Positions 3,605 through 61,812 of a stretch of 64,000 nt of DNA are shown here, one piece after another. A model generated the notes under the pieces. It saw nothing but the letters and a program-made list of their open reading frames with translations. It had not been told where the DNA came from and ran no database searches. The first letter of the stretch is position 1; each line of letters opens with the position of its first letter. Position numbers and translations under genes: made by a program. Source of the DNA: Candidatus Vogelbacteria bacterium RIFOXYD1_FULL_44_32 (GTDB lineage Bacteria; Patescibacteriota; Minisyncoccia; Phycocordibacterales; XYD1-FULL-46-19); assembly GCA_001823065.1 (NCBI GenBank), contig MHTJ01000004.1:37839-101838 (forward strand), given 5' to 3'.

Positions 3605-5113
3605 ATGACCGAAATTCCCATCAAAATCTTAAAAGAACGTTTGGTGGAGATTTCTCACCTTACTTCTATTCTCAATCTCCTCGAGTGGGATCAAGAAGTA
3701 AATATGCCCCGCAAAGCCGGTGACGCGCGCGCCGAGGCCTTTGCTCACCTGGCGGGGATTATTCACAGTAAAATCCTTGCTTTAAACGAGGGGGGACATT
3801 TGGTCCAGCTTAAAAAATTATTTGATAGCGGAAAAATTAGTGGTGGTAATGGGGTAATTGTGAACGAAACTTGGCGGACCTATGACCGTGAAAAAAAGTT
3901 GCCGGCCAGTTTTGTGCAGGAACTAGCGACAACTATTTCCAAAGCCCAAGGGGTATGGGCTGAAGCCCGTACCAAAAATGATTTTGCAATTTTTCTACCT
4001 CATCTTGAAAAAATAGTGAAACTGAAAAAACAAGAAGCCGAGCTGGTGGGCTATACCGCTTCACCTTATGATGCCCTGCTCGATGCCTACGAGCCAGGGA
4101 TAGACACCGCGACGTTTTCAGCAATATTGTTGGACCTTAAAGAGTTTCTGGTACCATTTTTGAAGCGGATTAAAGAGTCGACGGTAAAAATAAAACCCGA
4201 GCGGGTGAAAGGGCGGTTTAAACTGCATCAGCAAATTATATTTAATGAATTAGTGTTAAATCAAATTGGTTTTGATTTAGAAGCGGGCCGGCTCGATGCC
4301 AGTGTACACCCCTTTTCGAGTGGTTTTCATCCGTATGACGTGCGCCTCACCACTCGGTATAAAGAAAATGATGTTTTGTATTCTTTGGGCTCGACTATTC
4401 ATGAAGCGGGGCACGGTTTGTATGAGCAGGGCTTGCCGGTGGAACACTTTGGCACACCGCTGGCCGAGACAGTGTCGCTTGGTATTCACGAATCGCAGTC
4501 ACGCTTGTGGGAAAATCAGATTGGTAAGAGTCGGCCGTTTTGGAAATTTTTTTATCCGAAATTACAACAGGCTTTCTCTAAACCGTTTCAGAATATTTTA
4601 CCAGCTGAATTTTATCAGATTATCAATCGGGTTCAGCCGTCACTTATTCGCACCGAGGCCGACGAGGTGACTTATAATCTGCATATTATTTTACGGTTTG
4701 AAATTGAAAAAGATTTAATTGAAGGCAAGATCAAAGCCAAAGATTTGCCGGCGCTTTGGCGAGCTAAAATGAAAGAATATTTAGATATTGAGGTCCCGTC
4801 CGATACTTTAGGTGTTTTACAAGATGTGCACTGGTCAGCTGGGTTGTTTGGCTACTTTCCGACCTATAGTTTTGGCAATTTATACGCGGCGCAGTTTTAT
4901 GCCAAAATGGAGAAAGACATTCCTAACTTAGACCGTAAAATCGCCATCGGCGATTTTACGGTGGTCATCGAGTGGCTCCGGCGCCATATTCACCTGACCG
5001 GCAAAACTGACACCGCTAGTGACTTGGTCAAAAAAGTGACCGGCGAGGCCCTTGATCCCAAATATTTCAACCAATATTTAGAAGAAAAATATAGTGAGAT
5101 TTATAATCTTTAA
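3605..5113 (+). CDS. Carboxypeptidase Taq-like M32 metallopeptidase
   Basis: HESQSRLWEN and HEAGHGLYE (HExxH) motifs characteristic of family M32. The start is taken at MTEIP, 7 nt after a TATACT box. Confidence 0.8.
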   Translation: MTEIPIKILKERLVEISHLTSILNLLEWDQEVNMPRKAGDARAEAFAHLAGIIHSKILALNEGGHLVQLKKLFDSGKISGGNGVIVNETWRTYDREKKLPASFVQELATTISKAQGVWAEARTKNDFAIFLPHLEKIVKLKKQEAELVGYTASPYDALLDAYEPGIDTATFSAILLDLKEFLVPFLKRIKESTVKIKPERVKGRFKLHQQIIFNELVLNQIGFDLEAGRLDASVHPFSSGFHPYDVRLTTRYKENDVLYSLGSTIHEAGHGLYEQGLPVEHFGTPLAETVSLGIHESQSRLWENQIGKSRPFWKFFYPKLQQAFSKPFQNILPAEFYQIINRVQPSLIRTEADEVTYNLHIILRFEIEKDLIEGKIKAKDLPALWRAKMKEYLDIEVPSDTLGVLQDVHWSAGLFGYFPTYSFGNLYAAQFYAKMEKDIPNLDRKIAIGDFTVVIEWLRRHIHLTGKTDTASDLVKKVTGEALDPKYFNQYLEEKYSEIYNL

Positions 5114-8312: not shown

Positions 8313-8439
8313 GGAAATGTTTTTCGGCGAGCACACATAATTTTCTGCTGAAAATTTGCTCTGCTCGGGCCGCCCGCCTGCCATGCGAGGCACGAGCGGG
8401 CAGGTCGCCCTTGCGCAAGGCTCGGCGAAAAACATTTCC
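8313..8439. repeat. Structured intergenic repeat, family A copy 1 (conserved core enclosed by 20-bp inverted arms)
   Basis: Arms ggaaatgtttttcggcgagc (8313-8332) and gctcggcgaaaaacatttcc (8420-8439) enclose the core cacacataattttctgctgaaaatttgctctgctcgggccg...tcgcccttgcgcaagg. The same core is found at 17191-17250. Confidence 0.7.
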
Positions 8440-8811
8440 TCGCTTAGTTGGAATAGAAACTTATTTGACTCAAACAGATGAAGTTTCCTGTTCGTCTCAT
8501 TGATTTTTAAACTAGCTCCCACGAAAGCGCCAAAAGGTGAGGGTTCGTTGGGGTGATGGGAAGAAGGGGGGGATTAAATACAGTTAATGAAAAGGCCACC
8601 AACCCCCCAAAAAACGCCCTAGACCGGACGTTTTTTGGAGGCAAAATTACCTTGACAAAACAGCATTTTATGTGCTAGGAATGGGTGGTACTTTTGATCG
8701 TTGAAATAACTCCGACCAGCCTATCGCTGGGCGGAGAACCATATAGATAGAAGAAGGGAAGAAGGAAAGAAACAAAGTTTTCGCCGTGAGGCTAAAACAG
8801 GAGGAAGCGTC

Positions 8812-10956
8812 ATGAAGAAGAGTCTGTCGTCGCTGGCCACCCTGGTGGCATTTGTTACAGTTTTGTCGGGTTGTGTCGGGGGGTGTTGCGTGGCTTTCGT
8901 GTCGTGGACAGACGAGTTCACAGATGATGCCGGCCGCATCCTCTTTCCAGTGCAGGTGGACGAAGTCCAGGGTCAAGGTGGCAACACCATGGCCCAGGAG
9001 TCGGCCGAAGTTCGGCTCATGAGGGTCGATTCACAAGGACGTGCCTTTGAGGTGGCGTCCAAAGTGGATGTGACCTTTGGGTCGCTCGGAGATGTTGAGG
9101 CCTACCCGATTTACTCGGGTGCCAAAGGTGCCAAAGATCTCCTGCCGTATGGCTACGTCACTCCTGGTGGCGTGGTCATGCAGAATTTTGGCATCGGCGG
9201 ACACGCCGTGCCGGCGATGTCTGGACAATTCCAGATTGTGAGCTGGGCGAGCGTTGTGCAGGAACACCCAGGTGCCTTTATCGGCGCCGCGTTGGTTTTA
9301 CTAACAGATGTTGAGTTGGTCCGCCCCGATTTTGGCGGACGGCTTTCCGTCTTGTTTACGATCAGCCAGCCTGGGGATTACTTGATTGAGGTTGATGGTT
9401 TTGCCAGCCCGATTTTGGGGGGTAGAGTCATTAGCTTTCTTACTTGCAACTTCTCTTGGACCTCGGAGGTGTTCACCCTGAACCCGCCGGGAATTGAGCC
9501 AGATCGTGATGGCGATGGTGTGCCGGACAGCGAAGATAACTGTCCAGCCACTTGGAATCCTGATCAACAAGATTCCGACCATGACGGTATTGGTGACGCG
9601 TGTGAACGTGACACCGACGGTGACGGCATTTCCGATGATGAGGACAACTGTCCTTTCATCTCCAATCCAAATCAGCTTGATACAGATGGAGATGGTGTTG
9701 GGGATGTTTGTGATAATTCTTCTGGTGAAGGTGAAGGTGAAGGTGAAGGTGAAGGTGAAGGTGAAGGTGAAGGTGAAGGTGAAGGTGAAGGTGAAGGTGA
9801 AGGTGAAGGTGAAGGTGAAGAACTCACGCTCGACTTGTCGATTAAAGAAGGTGGCAACACTTTCGAAGTCGGCGAAGATTTCACGTTGAAGCTTGATATT
9901 GACGGGGCGACAGAGCCTTACAATGTCACATTGCGTGGAACTGGGGCGGAGTTCGTCGCCTTTCGTTTTGAAGACGGTGTCATAACCGTCACGGACCGAA
10001 TCTTGGCCAACGACGTCATCGGCGAGCCAGTGCTTGTTGGTAGCAATATCGAATTGAATTACTTGCCAAAGGTGACGACTGGCGGTGAGTTTGCTTCGAT
10101 TGAGGCCCAGGTAACGGATGCCCAAAGCAACCAAGCCCAGGACTCAGTTGATGTCAAAGTCGTCGTGGCGACCGGTATCGTTCCCAATGTCATCGACCTC
10201 CCTCAACAAGAAGGAGGGGATGATGTCGAAGGAGCCGGTTTTGTAGTTGGTACAATCACGACCCGTTGCAGTGACACCATTGCCGCTGGCCGGATTATCG
10301 ACTACAACCCCAAGGGTGTTCAGCCTTTGGGCACCGCCATTAATCTGGTGGTTTCCACCGGGCCCTGTGGACCGGAGATGACCACCGTGCCCAACGTGGT
10401 TGGTGACTTACTGGTGAATGCGGATGCCGAAATCACTGGTGCCAACCTCGAGGTCGGTAATGTGACGGAAGTCTTCAGTACCGCACCAGTCGGGCAGGTG
10501 ACAATCCAAAGTCCTGTCGGTGGGACGCAAGTGCCCGTCGGTAGTGCGGTGAACCTCACTGTTTCGAAAGGTGAGGAACCGGTGCCTGGGCCATTGGCGC
10601 TAGTTGTTACTTCGGCCGACGAAGATTTTCCCAATAGTTACCAAACTAACGGGACGATGACGTTCAGGGCCAAGATCAACGGCGACGTGCCCGCTCCGTA
10701 TACCGTGCGGTTCCGTGGGTTGCAGAGTGATCAAATTACCGTCACTCTCAATGTCGATGGGTCGGTGACGTTTGTCAGCCGTTCTGGCGGGGCGACGATC
10801 ACCTACGACAGACATCCTTCCGACCCCCGGTCGGTGATGTTTTCCCAGATGATCTTGTTTTCGACGCAGGGTCAGCCAGCTGGTCTCTACTTCCAAGCCG
10901 AGGCAGGCGGGCAAACCGCTGATGTTGGAAACATCTCCGTCGTCGTGACGGATTAG
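8812..10956 (+). CDS. Surface lipoprotein with thrombospondin-type-3-like Ca-binding repeats, (Gly-Glu)16 tract and PASTA/Ig-like C-terminal domains
   Basis: Lipobox signal [21 protein letters not shown] and an AGGAGG SD. Repeated DxDxDGxxDxxDNCP motifs, a (GE)16 tract, and VPNVVGDLL...-type repeats. Confidence 0.75.
9724..9819 (+). repeat. Perfect (GGTGAA)16 hexanucleotide microsatellite inside the lipoprotein gene
   Basis: Read directly as ggtgaa x16; it encodes (GE)16 in frame. Confidence 0.95.
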
Positions 10957-17168: not shown

Positions 17169-17275
17169 GAACGCCAGAAGTTAATTTTCATCACACACAT
17201 AATTTTCTGCTGAAAATTTGCTCTGCTCGGGCCGTCGCCCTTGCGCAAGGTTCTGAAAATTAACTTCTGGCGTTC
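17169..17275. repeat. Structured intergenic repeat, family A copy 2 (same core, different perfect 22-bp inverted arms)
   Basis: Arms gaacgccagaagttaattttca (17169-17190) and its exact reverse complement (17254-17275) enclose the family-A core. Confidence 0.7.
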
Positions 17276-17409
17276 CGTGTAGTTTTAAAACTAAAGGAGT
17301 ATCAAAACCTAAATTTGAGAAACTAGGGAGCGCGACGGCGCGAGCTCGAGGAATTTTTTAGCAAAAAAATATCCGTATTCTCAAAATTAGCGTTTTGATG
17401 TGACTCACC

Positions 17410-20088: not shown

Positions 20089-20112
20089 CGAATCAGAAAA
20101 CTGGCGGTGATA

Positions 20113-20170
20113 GCGCGGGCAAGGTTGGATGGCGGGTGCGCCATCCAACCTTGCCCGCGCTTTTTTGTTT
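20113..20170 (+). terminator. Rho-independent terminator (long GC hairpin + T tract)
   Basis: Hairpin gcgcgggcaaggttggatggcgggtgcgccatccaaccttgcccgcgc followed by ttttttg. Confidence 0.85.
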
Positions 20171-22497: not shown

Positions 22498-22790
22498 TGA
22501 ACAAGTGAATGACCAACTGACGGAAGGAGGTGATGTCTATGTTGGCCACGAAGTCCCTTGAACATTATTTTGATATGAAGACGACGGCAACCACCGCCAC
22601 GGCCTGACCGGCCATCGGCGCGCGCCCCAACAAACCGGGCATAGGGCCCGGGGAGGAATACCCATGAACATTCGGCGTCCGCGCGACTCAGCCGGCTAGG
22701 TACTCTAGCCATCTGCGTCGCAAATAAATTTGCCGTCCCCCGACCACGTGCCTTTATGGCAATCGCGCACGGGGGGCGGCTTTTCTTTTA
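22498..22790 (+). ncRNA. Candidate ~290-nt GC-rich transcript (promoter to terminator), possibly dual-function with a micro-ORF
   Basis: The unit starts at a consensus promoter and ends at the hairpin gccgtccccc...ggggggcggc plus a T tract (22732-22790). It is GC-rich with several internal hairpins and contains no long ORF. Confidence 0.3.
22539..22607 (+). CDS. SD-led 22-codon micro-ORF (MLATKSLEHYFDMKTTATTATA)
   Basis: AGGAGG at 22525-22530, 8 nt before the ATG at 22539; TGA stop at 22605. Confidence 0.25.
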   Translation: MLATKSLEHYFDMKTTATTATA

Positions 22791-23783
22791 CAATTTTTTA
22801 GGAGCGTAATCAGCTGGAGCTTCAGCTAAATATTTTTCAATTTTTTCTTTGGTCAAAAGGCCAGATTGGGCACCAACAGATTGCACTACTGACATCGAGT
22901 TTATCGGCGCGCGCTTGAGCGCCTCCGGGACACTCATTCCTAAAGCAATAAAAGAAGTAAAGGTCGAGGCAAAAGCGTCACCGGCTCCCGTGCGACTTAT
23001 TGGTGATTTTGGGTCGGGGTAAATTGGCATTTGCCACATGTCGGTACCGTCAAAAGTGTAGGCGCCATTTGGCCCGTCAGTCAGACCCACTATTTTGGGA
23101 CCCAAATTTTTAATGCTGGTCAATAGATTTTTCACATCAGTCTCGTCTGGAGTTTTTAATATTCGCCGTGCTTCTTCTAGGTTGCAGACAAATATTTCGG
23201 TCCGAGCAAAAATATCGGGCAGTTTATCTGGGCCCAAATTTATTTGAAAAGTCCCTGGTTGAAAGGCTAATTTGGTTTCGGGGTGAGCCAAAAGCCAGGT
23301 CGCCAACTGGTGGTGAAAATCAAGCGAGTTTTCACCTAGCGAGCTAAGGTAAATCCAGCGCGGGTTGCCAATATCCGGCAAACTATAATCATATTTTTCG
23401 TGCTTAATTAAAATAGTCCGTTCGGCGCCATACCACAAAACATAATGATAATTGGTTTTTTGGCCGGCATTGGTTTTTACCAAATCAGTCGCGACATTTT
23501 CCTTAGCTAAACTTGCTAGGGCTTCTTTACCTTCGTCGTCATCACCAATATTAGTCAGAAGACCAGTAGTAAGGCCCAGACGGGAAGCCGAGACAGCGGC
23601 ATTGGGCGAATTGCCGACCGCAGGCACAATGGTGACCGACTCGTAGGGGATTTTGTCACCGAAAGCCAGACAGATTTTGCAATTGTCTTTATTAATATCA
23701 CAATTGACCTCGGCCTCTTGCAGTTTAATAAAAGCATCAGTAGTAATATCGCCAATTGCTAAAATGTCTAGTTTTTTATTCAT
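22788..23783 (-). CDS. PfkB-family carbohydrate kinase (ribokinase-like)
   Basis: LDILAIGDITTD N-terminal motif and the GAGDAF anion hole. Start chosen at MNKKLD, which has an upstream TATAAT and AAAGG. Confidence 0.8.
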   Translation of the reverse strand: MNKKLDILAIGDITTDAFIKLQEAEVNCDINKDNCKICLAFGDKIPYESVTIVPAVGNSPNAAVSASRLGLTTGLLTNIGDDDEGKEALASLAKENVATDLVKTNAGQKTNYHYVLWYGAERTILIKHEKYDYSLPDIGNPRWIYLSSLGENSLDFHHQLATWLLAHPETKLAFQPGTFQINLGPDKLPDIFARTEIFVCNLEEARRILKTPDETDVKNLLTSIKNLGPKIVGLTDGPNGAYTFDGTDMWQMPIYPDPKSPISRTGAGDAFASTFTSFIALGMSVPEALKRAPINSMSVVQSVGAQSGLLTKEKIEKYLAEAPADYAPKKL

Positions 23784-23819
23784 TTCTAAATTATACCTTT
23801 CTCTGTAATTATTCCCAAA

Positions 23820-24554
23820 AATATTGGACACCGAGTGTCCAATATTTTAAACTTATGATAATGAGAAAGATAAAAATTTGTGAGGGGGAGTATTATCACA
23901 TTTACAATCGTGGAGTAGATAAAAAAGACATTTTTATTGATAAACGAGATTACGCCCGGTTCTTATTTTGTGTTTTGTTTTTCCAATCGCCACTTTCATT
24001 AGTTAATCCTCCCTCCTATATTAATTATTTTATTGGACACTCGGTGTTCAATATTTCTCAAAAAATTAAAAAACAAATAATTAGTGATAAGTATGTTGAG
24101 TTGGTGTCTTTTATATTTATGCCCAATCATTTCCATTTAATTGTTAAGGAAAAGGTGGCAGGGGGAATTTCTCAATATATGCAAAGAATTCAAAATTCTT
24201 TTACAAAATATTTTAATACAAAATATAAAAAGAATGGGCATTTATTTCAGGGGCCATATCAAATTGTTTATATTGAAGATGATGAACAGTTACTTTATTT
24301 ATCATCATATATACATCGGAATTGTCGGGTACTTAATGGTTGGAAGAATAAGGAGGAAAAGTATCCGTGGTCAAGCTACTCTGATTTTTTAGGCCCAAAT
24401 CGGTTTGGTGGTCTATTAGAACCAGAAATTATTATGTCCGAATTTAATAATGCTGGTGATTATAAAATAGAGGTTCAAAACAGTGGCGCCAAAGAGATAA
24501 TTGAAGATTTATTAATTGATAATTGATAATATTGGACACTCGGTGTCCAATATT
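23820..24554 (+). mobile_element. IS200/IS605-family (or RAYT-like) element with 27-bp palindromic termini
   Basis: aatattggacaccgagtgtccaatatt at 23820-23846 and its reverse complement at 24528-24554 flank a HuH tyrosine-transposase ORF. Confidence 0.7.
23855..24526 (+). CDS. tnpA: IS200-like HuH tyrosine transposase (TnpA / REP-associated-like)
   Basis: HIYNRG, HuH motif MPNHFHLIV and catalytic-Tyr motif YIHRN. Start taken at MIMRKIKI. Confidence 0.75.
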   Translation: MIMRKIKICEGEYYHIYNRGVDKKDIFIDKRDYARFLFCVLFFQSPLSLVNPPSYINYFIGHSVFNISQKIKKQIISDKYVELVSFIFMPNHFHLIVKEKVAGGISQYMQRIQNSFTKYFNTKYKKNGHLFQGPYQIVYIEDDEQLLYLSSYIHRNCRVLNGWKNKEEKYPWSSYSDFLGPNRFGGLLEPEIIMSEFNNAGDYKIEVQNSGAKEIIEDLLIDN

Positions 24555-24601
24555 TTGTTTTTCTAGAGAAGATGTAAAGTCTTTATGGTAGAATAGGAGG
24601 A

Positions 24602-25468
24602 ATGAAGACATTAATTGAATATATTCAGGAGGCAGATAAGGGAGGTTGGGCCCTGGGGCATTTTAATATTTCTAATATTGAGGGCCTGTGGGGGGTGTTT
24701 CGGGCGGCCGAGGCTGAAAAATTACCAGTCATTATTGGGGTGTCCGAAGGGGAACGAAATTTTATTGGTATTAAACAGGTTAAAGCTTTGGTTGATAGCT
24801 TGAAGGCCGAATATAACTATCCCATATTTTTAAATGCGGACCATACTTACTCCCTAGAAGAAATAAAAAAAGTGGTGGATGCGGGGTATGACTCAGTGGT
24901 GGTGGATGGGTCGAAACTAAGTTTGGAAGATAATATTACCCTAACGAAAACCGCGGTGGCTTATGCTAAAAGTGTGAACCCTAATATCTTGGTAGAAGGG
25001 GAGATTGGTTATATTGGCACTTCGAGCAAATTGCTGGACGAAATACCAGAGGAGGCCGCGATTTCAGGCGAGGCCTTGCCCTCGCCTGAAATCGCGGCCC
25101 AGTTTGTGCAAGCTACCGGCGTGGACTTGCTCGCTCCAGCAGTGGGTAATTTGCATGGTATGTTAAAGTCGGGGACTGATCCGCGTTTGGATATTGAATT
25201 GATAAAAAATATGCGAACCAAATGTGGGGTGCCACTGGTTTTGCATGGTGGGTCGGGTATTACCGATGAAGATTTTCGGTCGGCGATTAAAGCCGGTGTC
25301 TCGATGATTCATATTAATACCGAAATTAGGATAGTTTTTCGTGATGCTTTAAAAATATATTTGCAAAATAATCCAGACGAGATTGCACCGTACAAAATAA
25401 TGGCTCCGTCTATGCACGCGATTGAACAGAAAACCACCGAGCGATTGCGTTTATTTGCTGGGCGCTAA
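24602..25468 (+). CDS. fba: Class II fructose-bisphosphate aldolase
   Basis: Motifs GHFNISNIEG, LNADHT and LHGGSG. AGGAGG SD. Confidence 0.85.
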   Translation: MKTLIEYIQEADKGGWALGHFNISNIEGLWGVFRAAEAEKLPVIIGVSEGERNFIGIKQVKALVDSLKAEYNYPIFLNADHTYSLEEIKKVVDAGYDSVVVDGSKLSLEDNITLTKTAVAYAKSVNPNILVEGEIGYIGTSSKLLDEIPEEAAISGEALPSPEIAAQFVQATGVDLLAPAVGNLHGMLKSGTDPRLDIELIKNMRTKCGVPLVLHGGSGITDEDFRSAIKAGVSMIHINTEIRIVFRDALKIYLQNNPDEIAPYKIMAPSMHAIEQKTTERLRLFAGR

Positions 25469-41894: not shown

Positions 41895-42007
41895 GGTTGC
41901 AAATGCTTGACCCAGCCCCTGCCCAGGCCGAGGGCGGGTGCCGAATAGGCACATCTCCCTTGTGTGTGAAGCGCGAGGCCGTATGACCTCTGGGGCTTGG
42001 GTATTAG

Positions 42008-42228
42008 GGCGCTCGCCTAGCTTCCCTTTCAAAACACATCGCCACACCTCTAGAGGTGTGGCGATTCTGCTCCACCGTGGCCGTTTGGCCTTGCCCCTGC
42101 TGGGGCAAAATACCTAAGGCCAAAACCCTGCCGGCCGACAGCTCCGCAAGGTTTTGGAAAGGGAACTAGGCTCACTAACTCGAAAAAGATAAATGGTCAG
42201 CAAAAGGAGTAAGCTCGCTGGGTTGGGG
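42008..42228. repeat. Structured intergenic repeat, family B copy 1
   Basis: Shares a ~170-nt core with 51637-51810 and 54513-54690 (cctttccaaacaca...ctgctccagcggggccgtttggcc...ggccaaaaccctgccggccg...ccgcaaggtttggaaaggg...ctcgctgggttgg). This copy has an extra ~35-nt insert before the 3' tail. Confidence 0.75.
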
Positions 42229-45390: not shown

Positions 45391-45430
45391 AACCCGCCGC
45401 CGGCTCTGGTGCCGGCGGCGGGTTTTTATT
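45391..45430 (+). terminator. Rho-independent terminator
   Basis: Hairpin aaaacccgccgccggc-tctggt-gccggcggcgggttttt. Confidence 0.85.
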
Positions 45431-45444
45431 TTCCAACCAAGCGA

Positions 45445-45464
45445 GGAAATGTTTTTCGCCGAGC
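45445..45464. repeat. Solo copy of the family-A1 20-bp arm (ggaaatgtttttcgccgagc)
   Basis: Exact reverse complement of 8420-8439 with no partner arm or core nearby. Confidence 0.7.
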
Positions 45465-45491
45465 CTTTGATATATTTCCCAACCCAGCGAA

Positions 45492-45733
45492 CATTCTAAT
45501 TTTGGACTTTCGCGAGAGTGAATTTGGAAATCAAGGAAGCGAGCAGTAAATTCCATCTGTTTGACCCTGTGGAATAAGTAGACAAACTTTTTTAAGCAAT
45601 TAATATTCTGTTCTGAAGTTATATAATCACTAAATGTTAAAGTCTCTATTCCACGGGGGAGTTATGGAATTTGCGTCGTGAGATGAGTATGATTTCCAAT
45701 TTACGAAGCGTCCCCAGTCCAAAAATTAGAATG
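45492..45733. repeat. MITE-like nested inverted-repeat element abutting the dnaE stop
   Basis: Outer inverted repeat cattctaattttggact (45492-45508) / agtccaaaaattagaatg (45716-45733); inner repeat tgaatttggaaatca (45519-45533) / tgatttccaatttac (45690-45704). Confidence 0.5.
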
Positions 45734-51636: not shown

Positions 51637-51810
51637 GCACTCGCCTAGCTTCCCTTTCCAAACACAGAAAAAGCCCCAGCGGGCTTTTCCTTCTGCTCCA
51701 GCGGGGCCGTTTGGCCTAGTGCCTACTGGCACAAAATTCTCCAAAGGCCAAAACCCTGCCGGCCGACACCTCCGCAAGGTTTGGAAAGGGAACTAGGCTC
51801 GCTGGGTTGG
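51637..51810. repeat. Structured intergenic repeat, family B copy 2
   Basis: Starts immediately after the rnc stop. Same core as copies 1 and 3 but with different hairpin inserts (aaaagccccagcgggctttt; gtgcctactggcac). Confidence 0.75.
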
Positions 51811-51843
51811 ATAATAAAGTAGAAGTATAGGTGTTTTTTGTCT

Positions 51844-52280: not shown

Positions 52281-54512
52281 ATGCGTCTCCTTTCCCTTGA
52301 ACTATCTGGTTTCAAGTCGTTTGCTAAAAAGACGACGCTTCTTTTTGAGTCGCAGGTCACTTCGATTGTCGGCCCCAATGGTAGTGGCAAGTCCAATGTG
52401 GCCGAGGCCTTTCGTTGGGTGTTGGGCGAGCAGTCGCTAAAGTCACTGCGGGGTAAGCGGGGCGAGGATTTAATTTTTAATGGCGGTGGCGGCCACAGCC
52501 AGCAAAGCAAAGCCAGTGCCACGGTGGTTTTTGACAATCGTGACAAGCGCCTCGCTTTTGACTTTGACGAAGTAGCTATCACCCGTAGTGTCTATCGTGA
52601 TGGGACCAATGAATATAAAATAAACAATTCGGTCGTGCGTTTGAAAGATGTGCTCGAGCTGTTGTCGGGGGTGTCACTGGGGCCATCGGGACATCATATT
52701 ATTAGTCAGGGTGAAGCGGACCGAATTTTGAACGCGAGCTTGAAAGAAAGGCGCGAGATGATTGAAGAGGCGCTGGGGCTAAAGGCCTATCAGTGGAAAA
52801 TTGAAGAGAGCGAAAGAAAGTTGGCCAAAACGGAAGAAAATATCCGGCAGGTGGAGTCACTGCGGCGGGAAATTGCGCCCCATATTAAATTTCTTAAAAA
52901 ACAGGTAGAAAAAATCGAAAAGATTGATGAATTACGGCGTGATTTAAAAAAGAAATATCTCGACTATTTTATTCGCGAGGATGACTATCTCAAAAGTGAG
53001 CAAGCCGAAATCAATTCTCGACGCGCTAAACCGGAAGCGGAGCTGGCCGGGGTAATAAATAAATTGGCGCAAGTTGAAAATTTGTTAGCCTCACCCGATG
53101 AGGTGACCAAGGACAAGATGCAGGCGCTAGCTACCGCCGACCGAACTTTGCGGGAAATGCAAAGTCAGAAAGATGAATTGGCGCGCTCTTTGGGCCGGTT
53201 GGAGGGGATGATCGAAATTAGGTCTGAGGAAAAGCCTCTTACCGAGGGCGGTCGTAGTGTCCCTTTTGGAGAAATAAAAGATTTCACCGGCCGGCTGGCG
53301 GAGAGTATTGTGCGGGCCGAAGAAGCTGGTGATTTTTCAGTGCTTAAAAATATTTTAGGGCAGATTAAGGTGGAAATAAAAAGTTTTGTTGACCGGTTTC
53401 GCGAGGCACCGGCTGTGCGAGACAACCAAGTGGCTCTCTCGAGTTTAGTGCAGGAAAAAGAAGAAGCGACAAGGGAACTGGGCGAACTGGAAGCGCGTGA
53501 ACTAAATTTGCGGGAGGAAAGAAAAAATATGGCCAGTAGTTTGGAAGCGGGGCGCGAGCGTCTCCACGGGGCCGAGCGGGAACGTTATGAATTGCGGGCC
53601 CAAAAAAGTGAGTGGCAGGCAGTGTTGCACGACTTGTCGGCGCGCGAGCAAACCTTGACCCGCGAGCGGGAAAATTTTACTAAAGAAATAGCTGAAGCCC
53701 GGGTGCTGGTGGACAGCGAAGTGGCAGATTTTCGGCGGTTGGTACCGCTGGTACCGGATATGAATGAAGCGCGTGATGCTCAATATGACCGCTTACGCGA
53801 AATTGAAAAAATCAAAATTCGACTAGAGGATATGGGGGTCGAGACTGGGGATGTGCTCGAAGAATACAAAGAGGTGACCGACCGGGACCTTTTTCTAGAA
53901 AAAGAATTGGTCGATTTACATCAAAGTGCTGATTCGTTGCAGAAAATAATGGCGGAATTAAAAGAAAAACTGACGGTCGAGTTTAAAGAGGGTATCGATA
54001 AGATTAATAAAGAATTTAGTAATTATTTTACCCTCATGTTTGGTGGTGGCACCGCCGAGCTGAAAGTGGTGGCCCAGCCTAAACGTCGTTCGTTGGCGGA
54101 TGAAATACTAGAAGGGACTAATCTCGGCGAGTATGCCGAGACGGCTAAACCTGAAGAGGGTATTGATATTGGCGTATCTTTACCGCGCAAAAAAGTCAAA
54201 GGGCTGGTGATGATGTCGGGTGGGGAAAGAGCGCTGACCTCGATTGCACTCCTTTTTGCAATGTCGCAAGTTAACCCACCACCGTTTATTATTTTAGATG
54301 AAACTGATGCGGCCCTCGATGAAGCCAATTCACGCAAGTATGGCGATATGATAGAACGGCTGGCCAAAGAGTCACAACTGATTTTGATTACGCACAACCG
54401 CGAGACCATGTCGCGAGCTGGCGTTTTGTACGGGGTGACGATGGGCGCCGACGGGGTGTCAAAATTACTCTCAATCAAGTTTGATGAGGCCGCTTCAACT
54501 TTTGCAAAGTAG
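52281..54512 (+). CDS. smc: SMC-family chromosome-segregation ATPase (compact, 743 aa, no obvious hinge)
   Basis: N-terminus MRLLSLELSGFKSFAKKTTLLFE...IVGPNGSGKSNV. C-terminus LSGGERALTSIALLFA...ILDETDAALDEAN. A long coiled-coil region lies between them. Confidence 0.75.
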   Translation: MRLLSLELSGFKSFAKKTTLLFESQVTSIVGPNGSGKSNVAEAFRWVLGEQSLKSLRGKRGEDLIFNGGGGHSQQSKASATVVFDNRDKRLAFDFDEVAITRSVYRDGTNEYKINNSVVRLKDVLELLSGVSLGPSGHHIISQGEADRILNASLKERREMIEEALGLKAYQWKIEESERKLAKTEENIRQVESLRREIAPHIKFLKKQVEKIEKIDELRRDLKKKYLDYFIREDDYLKSEQAEINSRRAKPEAELAGVINKLAQVENLLASPDEVTKDKMQALATADRTLREMQSQKDELARSLGRLEGMIEIRSEEKPLTEGGRSVPFGEIKDFTGRLAESIVRAEEAGDFSVLKNILGQIKVEIKSFVDRFREAPAVRDNQVALSSLVQEKEEATRELGELEARELNLREERKNMASSLEAGRERLHGAERERYELRAQKSEWQAVLHDLSAREQTLTRERENFTKEIAEARVLVDSEVADFRRLVPLVPDMNEARDAQYDRLREIEKIKIRLEDMGVETGDVLEEYKEVTDRDLFLEKELVDLHQSADSLQKIMAELKEKLTVEFKEGIDKINKEFSNYFTLMFGGGTAELKVVAQPKRRSLADEILEGTNLGEYAETAKPEEGIDIGVSLPRKKVKGLVMMSGGERALTSIALLFAMSQVNPPPFIILDETDAALDEANSRKYGDMIERLAKESQLILITHNRETMSRAGVLYGVTMGADGVSKLLSIKFDEAASTFAK

Positions 54513-54690
54513 GGCACTCACCTCACTTCCTTTTCCAAACACATCGCCACACCTCTAGAGGTGTGGCGATTTTGCTCCAGCGGGGCCGTTTGGCCTCGTG
54601 TCTGCTGACACAACAATACCTAAGGCCAAAACCCTGCCGGCCGCCACCTCCGCAAGGTTTGGAAAAGGAAGGAGGTTCGCTGGGCTGGGG
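54513..54690. repeat. Structured intergenic repeat, family B copy 3
   Basis: Starts immediately after the smc stop. The outer stem changed compensatorily relative to copies 1 and 2 (cacttccttttccaaac / gtttggaaaaggaagg). Confidence 0.75.
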
Positions 54691-61539: not shown

Positions 61540-61812
61540 GTCCCCAATTCGGCAAGATTGAGTTGCGACCGCCGTCCGAAGCAACGTTTCTTGCATTTAT
61601 CTCAGATGGTTTTAAGCCCGAAGCGTCAAGCAGAGGGAGTTCTGTGGTTTGGTTTCATTTGTCATTTCTTTTTCGGCAGATGTTTTCTGGAGTACGGATA
61701 TTTTCTTGCTAGAAAATTCCTCGAGCTCGCGCCGCCGCGCTCCCTAGTCTCCAGCAAACACCCGCCTTCAACGAAATGATTTTGGGTAATTATTTTTTAA
61801 TAATAATTTTTA

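Follow-up and report, generated by a model that had tools for sequence, protein, structure and literature searches.

In a 64,000-nucleotide (nt) stretch of a groundwater Vogelbacteria genome, here called the window and searched for motifs over its full 64 kb, we analyzed a small gene for an HUH tyrosine enzyme that is bracketed by two palindromes and contains the same palindrome a third time, in frame, within its own coding sequence (positions 23820 to 24554). The same three-site anatomy recurs in related genes, where the three sites evolve in concert. The element is probably a complete REPtron-like cassette, consisting of a RAYT-like (REP-associated tyrosine transposase; class 2 TnpAY1) enzyme gene and three cognate palindromes, and its clade is large and confined to Patescibacteria. 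Repetitive extragenic palindromes (REPs) and RAYTs are among the commonest repeat systems of bacteria, and it is still unclear how the hairpins are recognized and how gene and repeat are matched to each other.

The upstream palindrome (AATATTGGACACCGAGTGTCCAATATT) is perfect, with arms and loop arranged as AATATTGGACAC-CGA-GTGTCCAATATT (12+3+12). The downstream palindrome (AATATTGGACACTCGGTGTCCAATATT) begins 2 nt past the stop codon and is followed by TTGTTTTTCT; because the stem is self-complementary, it differs from the upstream copy in its loop only, which is reverse-complemented (TCG). The internal copy (24032 to 24055, ATTGGACACTCGGTGTTCAATATT) shows one C>T mismatch to the flanking palindrome, which leaves a G.T pair, and the core common to the three sites reads ATTGGACAC-nnn-GTGTCCAAT. 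Exactly three matches to ATTGGACACYSRGTGTCCAAT at ≤3 mismatches were found in the window, against a chance expectation of 0.01 and with three matches reached in 0/100 shuffles; no palindrome copy beyond these three was seen in the 64 kb. A repeat finder grouped the three as one family (D13, with pairs I4 and I5). Folded as single-stranded DNA, the upstream, internal and downstream copies reached −12.5, −4.9 and −10.2 kcal/mol, respectively, with z-scores of −6.4 to −8.7; for the internal hairpin, the value of −4.9 kcal/mol refers to the sense strand and compares with −3.5 on the antisense strand. A sequence-only reading that preceded this analysis had located the three palindromes and quoted the protein motifs correctly, as direct reading confirmed. 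It had also placed the element 35 nt from the start of a PfkB kinase gene, which is indeed adjacent, the spacer between the pfkB start codon (23783, minus strand) and the upstream palindrome being 36 nt.

The open reading frame (ORF) starts with Met at 23861, with an alternative ATG at 23855, and ends with a stop codon at 24524 to 24526, encoding 221 amino acids (aa). Its product contains the motifs YYHIYNRG, MPNHFHLIV and SYIHRNC and matches Pfam Y1_Tnp (PF01797) at 43.4 bits over residues 61 to 155 (cut-off, 23); the only other Pfam match was a sub-threshold one to FhaA_N, and no helix-turn-helix (HTH) domain was detected. The predicted HuH pair is H90/H92 (nt 24128 to 24136), and the putative catalytic tyrosine is Tyr150 (nt 24308 to 24310) within SYIHRNC; N89-H90-F91-H92 and Y150 are invariant across 117 homologues. 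The AlphaFold model, with a mean predicted local distance difference test (pLDDT) score of 94, places Y150 on helix 141-152. Among solved structures, the best Foldseek match was 4ER8, E. coli TnpAREP bound to a REP hairpin (E value, 4e-7; template modeling score, 0.70), followed by the TnpA proteins of IS608, ISDra2 and IS200 (E values, 3.6e-4 to 6e-3), and these matches support a TnpA-type fold of a four-stranded sheet with flanking helices. A single-sequence search of PDB sequences gave no match, and a profile search gave weak matches only, to ISDra2 and 4ER8. The proposal that the gene encodes an HUH tyrosine enzyme of the IS200/RAYT type and stands between cognate palindromes was borne out.

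The closest homologue, at locus L136, is 75% identical and lies in the same context between pfkB and the aldolase gene fba. All three sites of L136 read ATCAAACAC-TCG-GTGTTTGAT, compared with ATTGGACAC...GTGTCCAAT in the window: every site differs at three base pairs of the stem, with both arms altered. The nonsynonymous divergence (dN) of the two genes is 0.157, and their synonymous divergence (dS) is 2.07, which is saturated. Given the resulting dN/dS of 0.076, the protein is under strong purifying selection, and the palindromes have kept their match long past the randomization of synonymous sites. The window's internal copy departs from its flanks only in the core at 24032 to 24052, at a TTC codon for which the flanking sequence would give TCC (Ser), and the nearly invariant Phe63 is thereby kept. 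A second group of homologues, the P0053 cluster, has an internal site that has gone along with its flank in a synonymous TTT>TTC change and has retained Lys and Phe. The pattern resembles a tug-of-war, with the DNA element pulling one way and a required hydrophobic residue the other.

For controls we used 27-mers taken from a protein-guided alignment, and thus not chosen for palindromy, together with synonymous recoding based on the codon usage of the family. The internal site of the window is identical to its flank at 22/23 positions, a value reached by 0/2000 synonymous recodings (mean, 16.8), and 17/30 loci stood at ≤1% in the same control. Among 33 unselected aligned sequences, 74% of cells were paired, compared with 63% in shuffles; double-sided stem changes numbered 50 versus 20 in shuffles (0/500 shuffles reached 50), and the covariation score was 0.339, compared with 0.05 to 0.16 when the partner columns were slid. 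Protein constraint alone was rejected as the cause of the similarity by the recoding and by loci that carry the palindrome in another frame. Since all three copies change together across the family, it is the DNA site, and not the nine encoded amino acids, that is being kept.

A survey covered 80 related loci taken from GTDB species genomes and scanned for palindromes, of which 72 were usable; two palindromes were considered to match if at least 19/23 positions were identical. The best upstream and downstream palindromes matched in 48/72 Patescibacteria loci, and the internal palindrome matched as well in 25 of those 48. Only 1.9% of between-locus comparisons reached this threshold: the palindromes vary among loci (e.g., TGTTAAACAC, TGTCCAAAGC, TGTGCAAAGT, TGAGCAACAT, TGTTCGAAGC and CTTCGGAGGT) and are alike within each locus. 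The layout of one site ∼30 nt before the ATG, one at ∼+181 nt in frame and one just past the stop codon recurs down to 32 to 35% protein identity. The center of the upstream site lies 17 to 75 nt before the ATG in 48/72 loci; for the internal site, it lies at +181 nt in close family members and ranges from +163 to +186 nt in relatives with 33 to 37% protein identity. The encoded peptide shifts with the palindrome (VKHSVFN, VQSRALD, VQSSTLH, EQHRMLL), so that it follows the DNA, with a nearly invariant Phe/Leu as the only limit, and the internal palindrome of five distant loci lies in another reading frame. The match search, the locus survey, L136, recoding and covariation all confirm that the in-frame copy is a true copy of the same DNA element, as had been proposed from the sequence. 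We also considered whether the palindrome-encoded peptide sets which palindrome is recognized. This was rejected by L110 and L125, two metagenome contigs on which a 51 to 53% identical gene has the window's flank palindrome and a decayed internal site, encoding LKHKIFK and IKHKKFK.

The survey yielded further observations on the sites. A distant subfamily (L041, L061, L063, L077) has a fourth locus-specific palindrome copy 204 to 232 nt before the ATG. At L016, L021, L028 and L073 and in protein P0003, the downstream palindrome overlaps the last codons, and the C terminus is palindrome encoded (e.g., ...VRHSVSNN). Gene callers often run the ORF upstream through the upstream palindrome (LDTECP...), producing spurious N-terminal extensions. 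After the downstream palindrome, several unrelated loci carry extra half-palindromes in tandem, each made of the loop, the right arm and a few flank bases (L001, 3678 to 3735; L002, 3646 to 3682; L030, ∼3660 to 3705; downstream sites of L025, L038 and L020).

Lengths and motifs of homologues were read from the best 120 of ∼1945 matches and from alignments of 27 and 117 sequences. The family comprises 143 clusters at 50% identity (E value of ≤1e-30), and those homologues that bear a source name come from Parcubacteria-type metagenome-assembled genomes (MAGs). The in-frame copy (F-I-G-H-S-V-F-N-I, residues 57 to 65, nt 24029 to 24055) aligns to a family motif F-[VI]-[KR]-H-x-V-F-N-I (consensus, F-V-K-H-x-V-F-N-I) in which Phe63 is nearly invariant, and neither alignment showed any indel or length variation at this site. 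Among those best 120 matches, lengths ranged from 212 to 284 aa, and nearly all were 212 to 235 aa. With no indel at the site and family-typical lengths, the gene therefore does not exceed its relatives in length and has received no insertion of its own; the claims that a palindrome had invaded this gene and that it lengthened the protein had to be given up. The expectation that the segment maps to a loop fared no better: residues 57 to 65 are modeled at a pLDDT of ∼95, as the end of helix 50-60 and a short turn before helix 67-75. The refuting outcome named in the sequence-only reading came true by half, in that the segment is a normal conserved part of the subfamily and its nucleotide similarity to the termini is not coincidental. 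In a profile alignment, query residue 62 stands opposite TnpAREP residue 31, and the clade therefore has ∼30 extra residues between β1 and αB. The palindrome-encoded segment forms the C-terminal edge of this extra segment (relative to E. coli TnpAREP and ISDra2 TnpA), on the N-terminal side of the HuH motif. An insertion may have occurred long ago, at the root of the clade, and this would be compatible with the explanation that we favor.

The sequence-only reading had asked whether related genomes lack the element at this site, and some do. In L131, L133 and L134, pfkB and fba are adjacent, with no Y1 gene and a 68- to 81-nt spacer (in L134, fba is seen as an N-terminal ORF fragment whose translation matches the window aldolase), compared with spacers of 36+47 = 83 nt around the cassette in the window. 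Judged by PfkB/aldolase identity, L134 is the closest to the window (85%/93%), followed by L131 and L133, and the filled L136 is the most distant (66%/74%). Either an ancestral cassette was cleanly removed at least twice or the same spacer was entered twice. We favor the first possibility, because the Y1 protein co-diverges with the host genes and because the 36-nt left spacer (23784 to 23819) is 33/36 identical to that of L136, compared with ∼73% nucleotide identity for the genes. This spacer is conserved only between the two filled sites, is unlike the empty-site spacers and carries a near-consensus TTGGGA-17-TATAAT facing pfkB; the cassette may supply the pfkB promoter, and the true left end of the element may then lie further left. 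The boundaries and target site of the element could not be fixed from the empty-site alignment, as the spacers are too diverged (36+47 versus 68 to 81 nt).

The upstream palindrome overlaps the −35-like hexamer of a promoter-like site of the Y1 gene, whose TAAACT hexamer ends 7 nt before the ATG at 23861. Taken as a candidate promoter, this site suggests a leaderless or near-leaderless transcript. A similar arrangement, with the palindrome end as −35 and TATAAT ∼6 nt before the ATG, was seen at L010, L016, L021 and L022. The downstream palindrome is the only terminator-like hairpin between 23600 and 24750, and Rfam reported no family at the locus. More generally, −10-like hexamers end 6 to 8 nt before the ATGs of fba, pfkB and Y1 (window, 24555 to 24601; spacers of L131, L133 and L134), and several of these starts have no obvious Shine-Dalgarno sequence, which hints at frequent leaderless or very-short-leader transcripts in these Vogelbacteria.

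Beyond the window, we found 17 extra palindrome copies in 238 kb of the relatives' flanks. The exact 21-mer of the window occurred in 36 distinct contexts in other metagenome contigs, 30 of them outside long open frames, with up to 3 copies per 46-kb contig. The designation of the palindromes as REP type was therefore only half right: the same 21-mer is dispersed in other metagenome contigs, and the window itself has neither a further copy in 64 kb nor a GTAG foot. The Y1 gene is present once in the 64 kb, three paralogues within one MAG are 69 to 72% identical, and the several near-identical copies per genome that are a trait of IS200/IS605 elements were not found. The P0053 cluster represents one conserved locus seen in many samples, and recent transposition to multiple loci was rejected for it on this ground. 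Within its near-identical strains, a 21-nt tandem duplication (TTTCCAGTTGTTGGACACCGA) in the upstream palindrome, ∼20 to 60 nt before the ATG, with its junction between loop and right arm (CGA^GTG), distinguishes L142, L144, L145 and L147 from L140, L141, L143, L146 and L148 to L155. At L084, L103 and L123, palindromes are nested, a second copy taking the place of the loop of the first.

Some features of these copies can be noted separately. The downstream palindrome of P0053 has a TCA loop in some haplotypes and a TGA loop in others. The nested form reads TGTTAGACACC-TACT-[core]-AGTA-GGTGTCTAA, within the loop of another family-type palindrome. Solo copies of the window 21-mer often sit at the tip of longer perfect palindromes, with up to 19 extra nt per side, each unique. 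Solo and nested copies were located at L084 (3175 to 3225), L103 (425 to 475), L123 (1737 to 1790), L091 (7036 to 7094), L116 (6700 to 6754) and L130 (1217 to 1267), and their form suggests that they were inserted into hairpin loops or that flanks were copied by foldback.

To account for these observations, we propose that the encoded enzyme would recognize all three palindromes, either as hairpins or as a symmetric duplex, by analogy with E. coli TnpAREP and the TnpA proteins of IS608 and ISDra2. The flanking palindromes would delimit the unit and double as promoter −35 element and terminator, and the copy within the ORF would be an ancient third site, retained as an enzyme substrate or binding site. 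Binding both at the promoter of its gene and within the DNA that encodes it, the enzyme might keep its expression or activity low; such self-control in cis is our tentative suggestion for the role of the internal site. The copies could be kept identical through co-evolution by selection or through enzyme-mediated copying.

Several points weigh against this interpretation. Recognition of the palindromes by the Y1 protein is argued by analogy, and the promoter is assigned by consensus match. The protein scored 40.7 bits against the NCBIfam model for RAYTs (NF047646, REP_Tyr_transpos), below the cut-off of 80, although this was still the best NCBIfam match. The aligned flanks contain no GT[AG]G foot or guide, reading AATATT in the window and mostly TGT...ACA in relatives. 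The internal hairpin of the window is weak (−4.9 kcal/mol). In 23/48 loci with good flanks (e.g., L014, L018, L110, L125), the internal copy is lost and the ORF is intact; the internal site can thus be dispensed with, and the case for a regulatory role is the weaker for it. Where the loop is asymmetric, the upstream and downstream sites were inverted in 13 loci and direct in 7, with all four combinations occurring, and mismatches on the sense strand showed no bias of G.T over A.C across loci (8 versus 8 upstream, 3 versus 5 internal, 9 versus 3 downstream). With loop orientation not fixed and no mismatch bias, either strand could be the acting one, and the sites could act as duplex or as hairpin. 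On the same counts, we rejected a fixed relative loop orientation as in IS608 (direct) or REPtrons (inverted), as well as a strand or RNA signal from mismatch numbers.

The patchy loss of the internal copy from intact ORFs would also be expected if this copy were a mere passenger, i.e., an old, functionless in-frame REP-like copy that still serves the enzyme as a substrate, is repeatedly overwritten with the present flank sequence by hairpin-targeted copying or replacement and decays once it is no longer recognizable. We doubt this explanation but take it seriously. Whole-site replacement would predict the loci in which one site has a different but still perfect palindrome (L003, L006, L012, L019, L020, L048); the breakpoints at the stem-loop junction (P0053 CGA^GTG; L084, L103, L123) point to enzyme-made nicks; and in-frame REPs inside tnpAREP are known and have been judged neutral (PMC6006769). 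However, no mechanism of in-place replacement is known for Y1 enzymes, and the internal sites of the window and of P0053 follow their flanks only where the protein allows it (Phe63 kept; TTT>TTC, not TCC), a pattern that looks like point substitution under two constraints and not like cassette replacement. Moreover, the internal site of L006 is a perfect palindrome and yet unlike its flanks. A more specific mechanism, which we regard as rather unlikely, would have the enzyme nick the stem-loop junction in a Rep-like and not an IS608-like manner, with hairpin-templated copying keeping the palindromes perfect and copying site onto site. If so, the enzyme would continually rewrite nine codons of its own gene, a coding sequence edited as its own substrate, and the dispersed solo palindromes on the tips of long palindromes, the nested copies and the flip/flop loops would be explained as well.

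The remaining alternatives appear less probable still. The sites could serve recombination, with HUH strand exchange deleting or inverting either the promoter and N-terminal module, between the upstream and internal sites, or the catalytic module, between the internal and downstream sites, so that the gene would be self-inactivating or switchable. The sites are identical, two copies of a perfect palindrome are direct and inverted repeats at once, all four loop-orientation combinations exist, and the whole cassette is cleanly absent from closer relatives of the host, which suggests that it was excised precisely at the outer sites. Nevertheless, we consider this improbable: none of the 80 loci showed a module inverted or deleted (weak evidence, as the search patterns were biased to intact genes), and all loci except L058, which is cut at a contig end, are collinear over most of the protein. 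Identities of the N- and C-terminal parts are correlated between pairs (r = 0.64, no outliers), and shuffling of modules at the internal site was rejected on this correlation and the lack of chimeras. Even less probable is that the palindromes act in the transcript, as stabilizing or terminating hairpins and as an internal pause site or attenuator, their identity reflecting a single RNA-binding factor. The window's downstream copy does have a T-run and scores as an intrinsic terminator, and the mismatch in the window's internal copy would pair as G.U on the sense strand. But T-runs are absent after the palindromes in most loci, sense-strand G.T pairs are not in excess over A.C, no Rfam family matches, the upstream copy overlaps the promoter-like site and would fall mostly outside the transcript, and structure alone leaves the shared sequence of three stems unexplained. 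Hardly tenable, finally, is the idea that a REP hairpin was recently inserted or retained in this gene and lengthened it, or that the likeness of a conserved protein motif arose by chance. There is extra sequence before αB compared with E. coli RAYT and ISDra2 TnpA, and in-frame REP insertions do occur in subclass 2.4 (PMC6006769); however, length and motif are common to the whole clade, the alignments have no indel at the site, and L136 and relatives at 33 to 37% identity also have the site; coincidence is excluded by the recoding and covariation controls. Both the recent-invasion and the coincidence forms are thus refuted, and a REPtron-like cassette with a retained third site is the explanation that we prefer.

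In this cassette, the match between gene and repeat can be read inside a coding sequence, where nine codons obey a palindrome shared with two noncoding sites, and this constraint spans a very large and diverse set of Patescibacteria genes. The clade thereby offers a natural series of enzyme/site pairs for studies of specificity as well as a built-in test of constraint at the DNA level versus the protein level, and it makes tractable the question of whether short sites evolve in concert by selection or by enzyme-mediated copying. It also shows that the streamlined genomes of the candidate phyla radiation keep REPtron-like cassettes over long periods. For annotation, the case cautions that a DNA element can cast its shadow as a "conserved protein motif."

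Table 1. Features of the palindrome-bracketed Y1 cassette and of its immediate neighborhood in the window
Feature	Position	Strand	Evidence
Upstream palindrome, 27 bp, perfect, 12-bp stem, loop CGA (+ strand)	23820..23846	.	Sequence; repeat finder (I5)
Y1 HUH tyrosine nuclease/transposase-like gene, 221 aa + stop	23861..24526	+	Pfam PF01797; AlphaFold; fold search
Internal in-frame palindrome copy, codons 57-65, FIGHSVFNI	24029..24055	+	Sequence; recoding; covariation
Downstream palindrome, 27 bp, perfect, loop TCG (+ strand)	24528..24554	.	Sequence; terminator-like
Promoter-like site TGGACA-17 nt-TAAACT, Y1 gene	23825..23853	+	Consensus match only, 9/12
Promoter-like site TTGGGA-17 nt-TATAAT, pfkB	23790..23818	-	Consensus match, 10/12
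Left neighbor, PfkB-family sugar kinase, outside the element	22788..23783	-	Pfam PF00294, 116 bits; identity of 100% with a Candidatus Vogelbacteria bacterium RIFOXYD1_FULL_44_32 protein
Right neighbor, class II fructose-bisphosphate aldolase (fba), outside the element	24602..25468	+	Pfam PF01116, 250 bits

The window contains several other repeats. An intergenic element of ∼175 nt is present in three copies (42005 to 42190, 51637 to 51815 and 54510 to 54690, + strand), comprising a core of high conservation (GGCCGTTTGGCC ... AAGGCCAAAACCCTGCCGGCCG ... CTCCGCAAGGTTTGGAAAGGGAA) as well as two hairpins that vary in sequence among copies with pairing kept (e.g., ATCGCCACACCTCTAGAGGTGTGGCGAT versus GAAAAAGCCCCAGCGGGCTTTTCC). 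It had no Rfam match even at an E value of ≤1 and has the look of a structured RNA or small mobile element that is not yet described. We also observed a tandem coding repeat of GGTGAA (Gly-Glu) at 9688 to 9831, a 62-nt inverted repeat pair 44 kb apart with 92% identity (17319 to 17380 and 61690 to 61751), 43- and 65-nt inverted repeats 37 kb apart (8417 to 8534 and 45425 to 45564), a 48-nt direct repeat (8332 to 8379 and 17194 to 17241) and a 50-nt perfect hairpin (20112 to 20161).

Compared with known systems, the cassette resembles the IS200/IS605 elements (IS200, IS608, ISDra2) in being a ∼0.7-kb unit with one small HUH-Tyr gene between hairpins and in its clean presence or absence at a site, as for precise excision; by analogy, a hairpin-guided single-strand cleavage chemistry would be expected. 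It differs from them in its Y---NP instead of Y---Q motif (the IS200/IS605 TnpA model NF033573 scored 16.5 bits against a cut-off of 55), in its perfect and not imperfect palindromes, and in lacking a near-identical multicopy set while being kept at one orthologous locus until dS saturates; an internal hairpin is not described for these elements. Palindromic repeats translated as short peptides that the host protein tolerates are also known from the in-frame Rickettsia palindromic elements and the intragenic GTAG/CGTC REPs of ordinary genes (PMC3733652), but those are scattered in unrelated genes, do not co-evolve with the flanks of the gene and have no family-conserved position.

Within class 2 TnpAY1 proteins, which the Y---NP motif sets apart (PMC6006769) and to which the family consensus YIHRNP conforms (YIHRNC in the window), subclass 2.1 (TIRYT) is reported to have either no REPs or long terminal inverted repeats with GGGG[AT][CG]A[CG], together with an HTH-like distal domain (Di Nocera 2013, PMC3733652; PMC6006769). 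The window protein shares with it NH[YF]H, FQ, Y[IV]HxNP, a C-terminal "SS" tail (PWSSY in the window) and a length of ∼220 to 240 aa, but its short, 23- to 27-bp perfect palindromes and the lack of an HTH domain detectable by Pfam place it outside this subclass. We found no description of a positionally fixed, clade-wide, co-evolving site within an ORF, nor of this Patescibacteria Y1 clade. The nearest precedent is the in-frame REPs inside the tnpAREP genes of subclass 2.4 (Bertels group 4; Quentin et al. 2018, PMC6006769), where, as here, the enzyme's own gene contains a cognate REP that leaves the frame unbroken and maps to the periphery of the protein. The window gene falls outside that subclass as well: its site is N-terminal to the HuH motif (residues 57 to 65 versus H90), is fixed in length and position (117 sequences were all alike in length here) and changes together with the flanks, and the motifs WQ and YIxNNP of subclass 2.4 are replaced by FQ and YIHRNP.

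A close likeness is also seen to REPtrons such as the yafM/rayT loci of E. coli, in which RAYT/TnpAREP genes are flanked by cognate REPs (structure 4ER8; PMC3333891, PMC3479197, PMC8266576). The clade described here differs from them in its ∼30-aa insertion before αB (αB and αC form the hairpin-binding surface of TnpAREP; PMC3479197) and its ∼60-aa C-terminal tail, in the third in-frame cognate site at a fixed position, and in its occurrence in Patescibacteria, which are unsampled in published classifications; the window cassette further differs in having no GTAG/GTGG foot, a RAYT model score below cut-off and no dispersed copies in 64 kb. What it shares with REPtrons is an HUH and tyrosine (Y-x-x-x-N-P type) enzyme of the same fold, low copy number with divergent paralogues (69 to 72%), vertical inheritance and purifying selection, of which motif, fold, copy number and inheritance fit the published criteria for RAYTs (PMC6006769, PMC8266576). 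Group 3 REPs are likewise known as perfect palindromes with important loop bases. TnpAREP proteins co-evolve with their REPs (PMC8266576), and in the clade, too, the bracketing palindrome co-varies with the gene; the arrangement of a gene bracketed by a gene-specific palindrome was found in the window and in 48/72 related loci.

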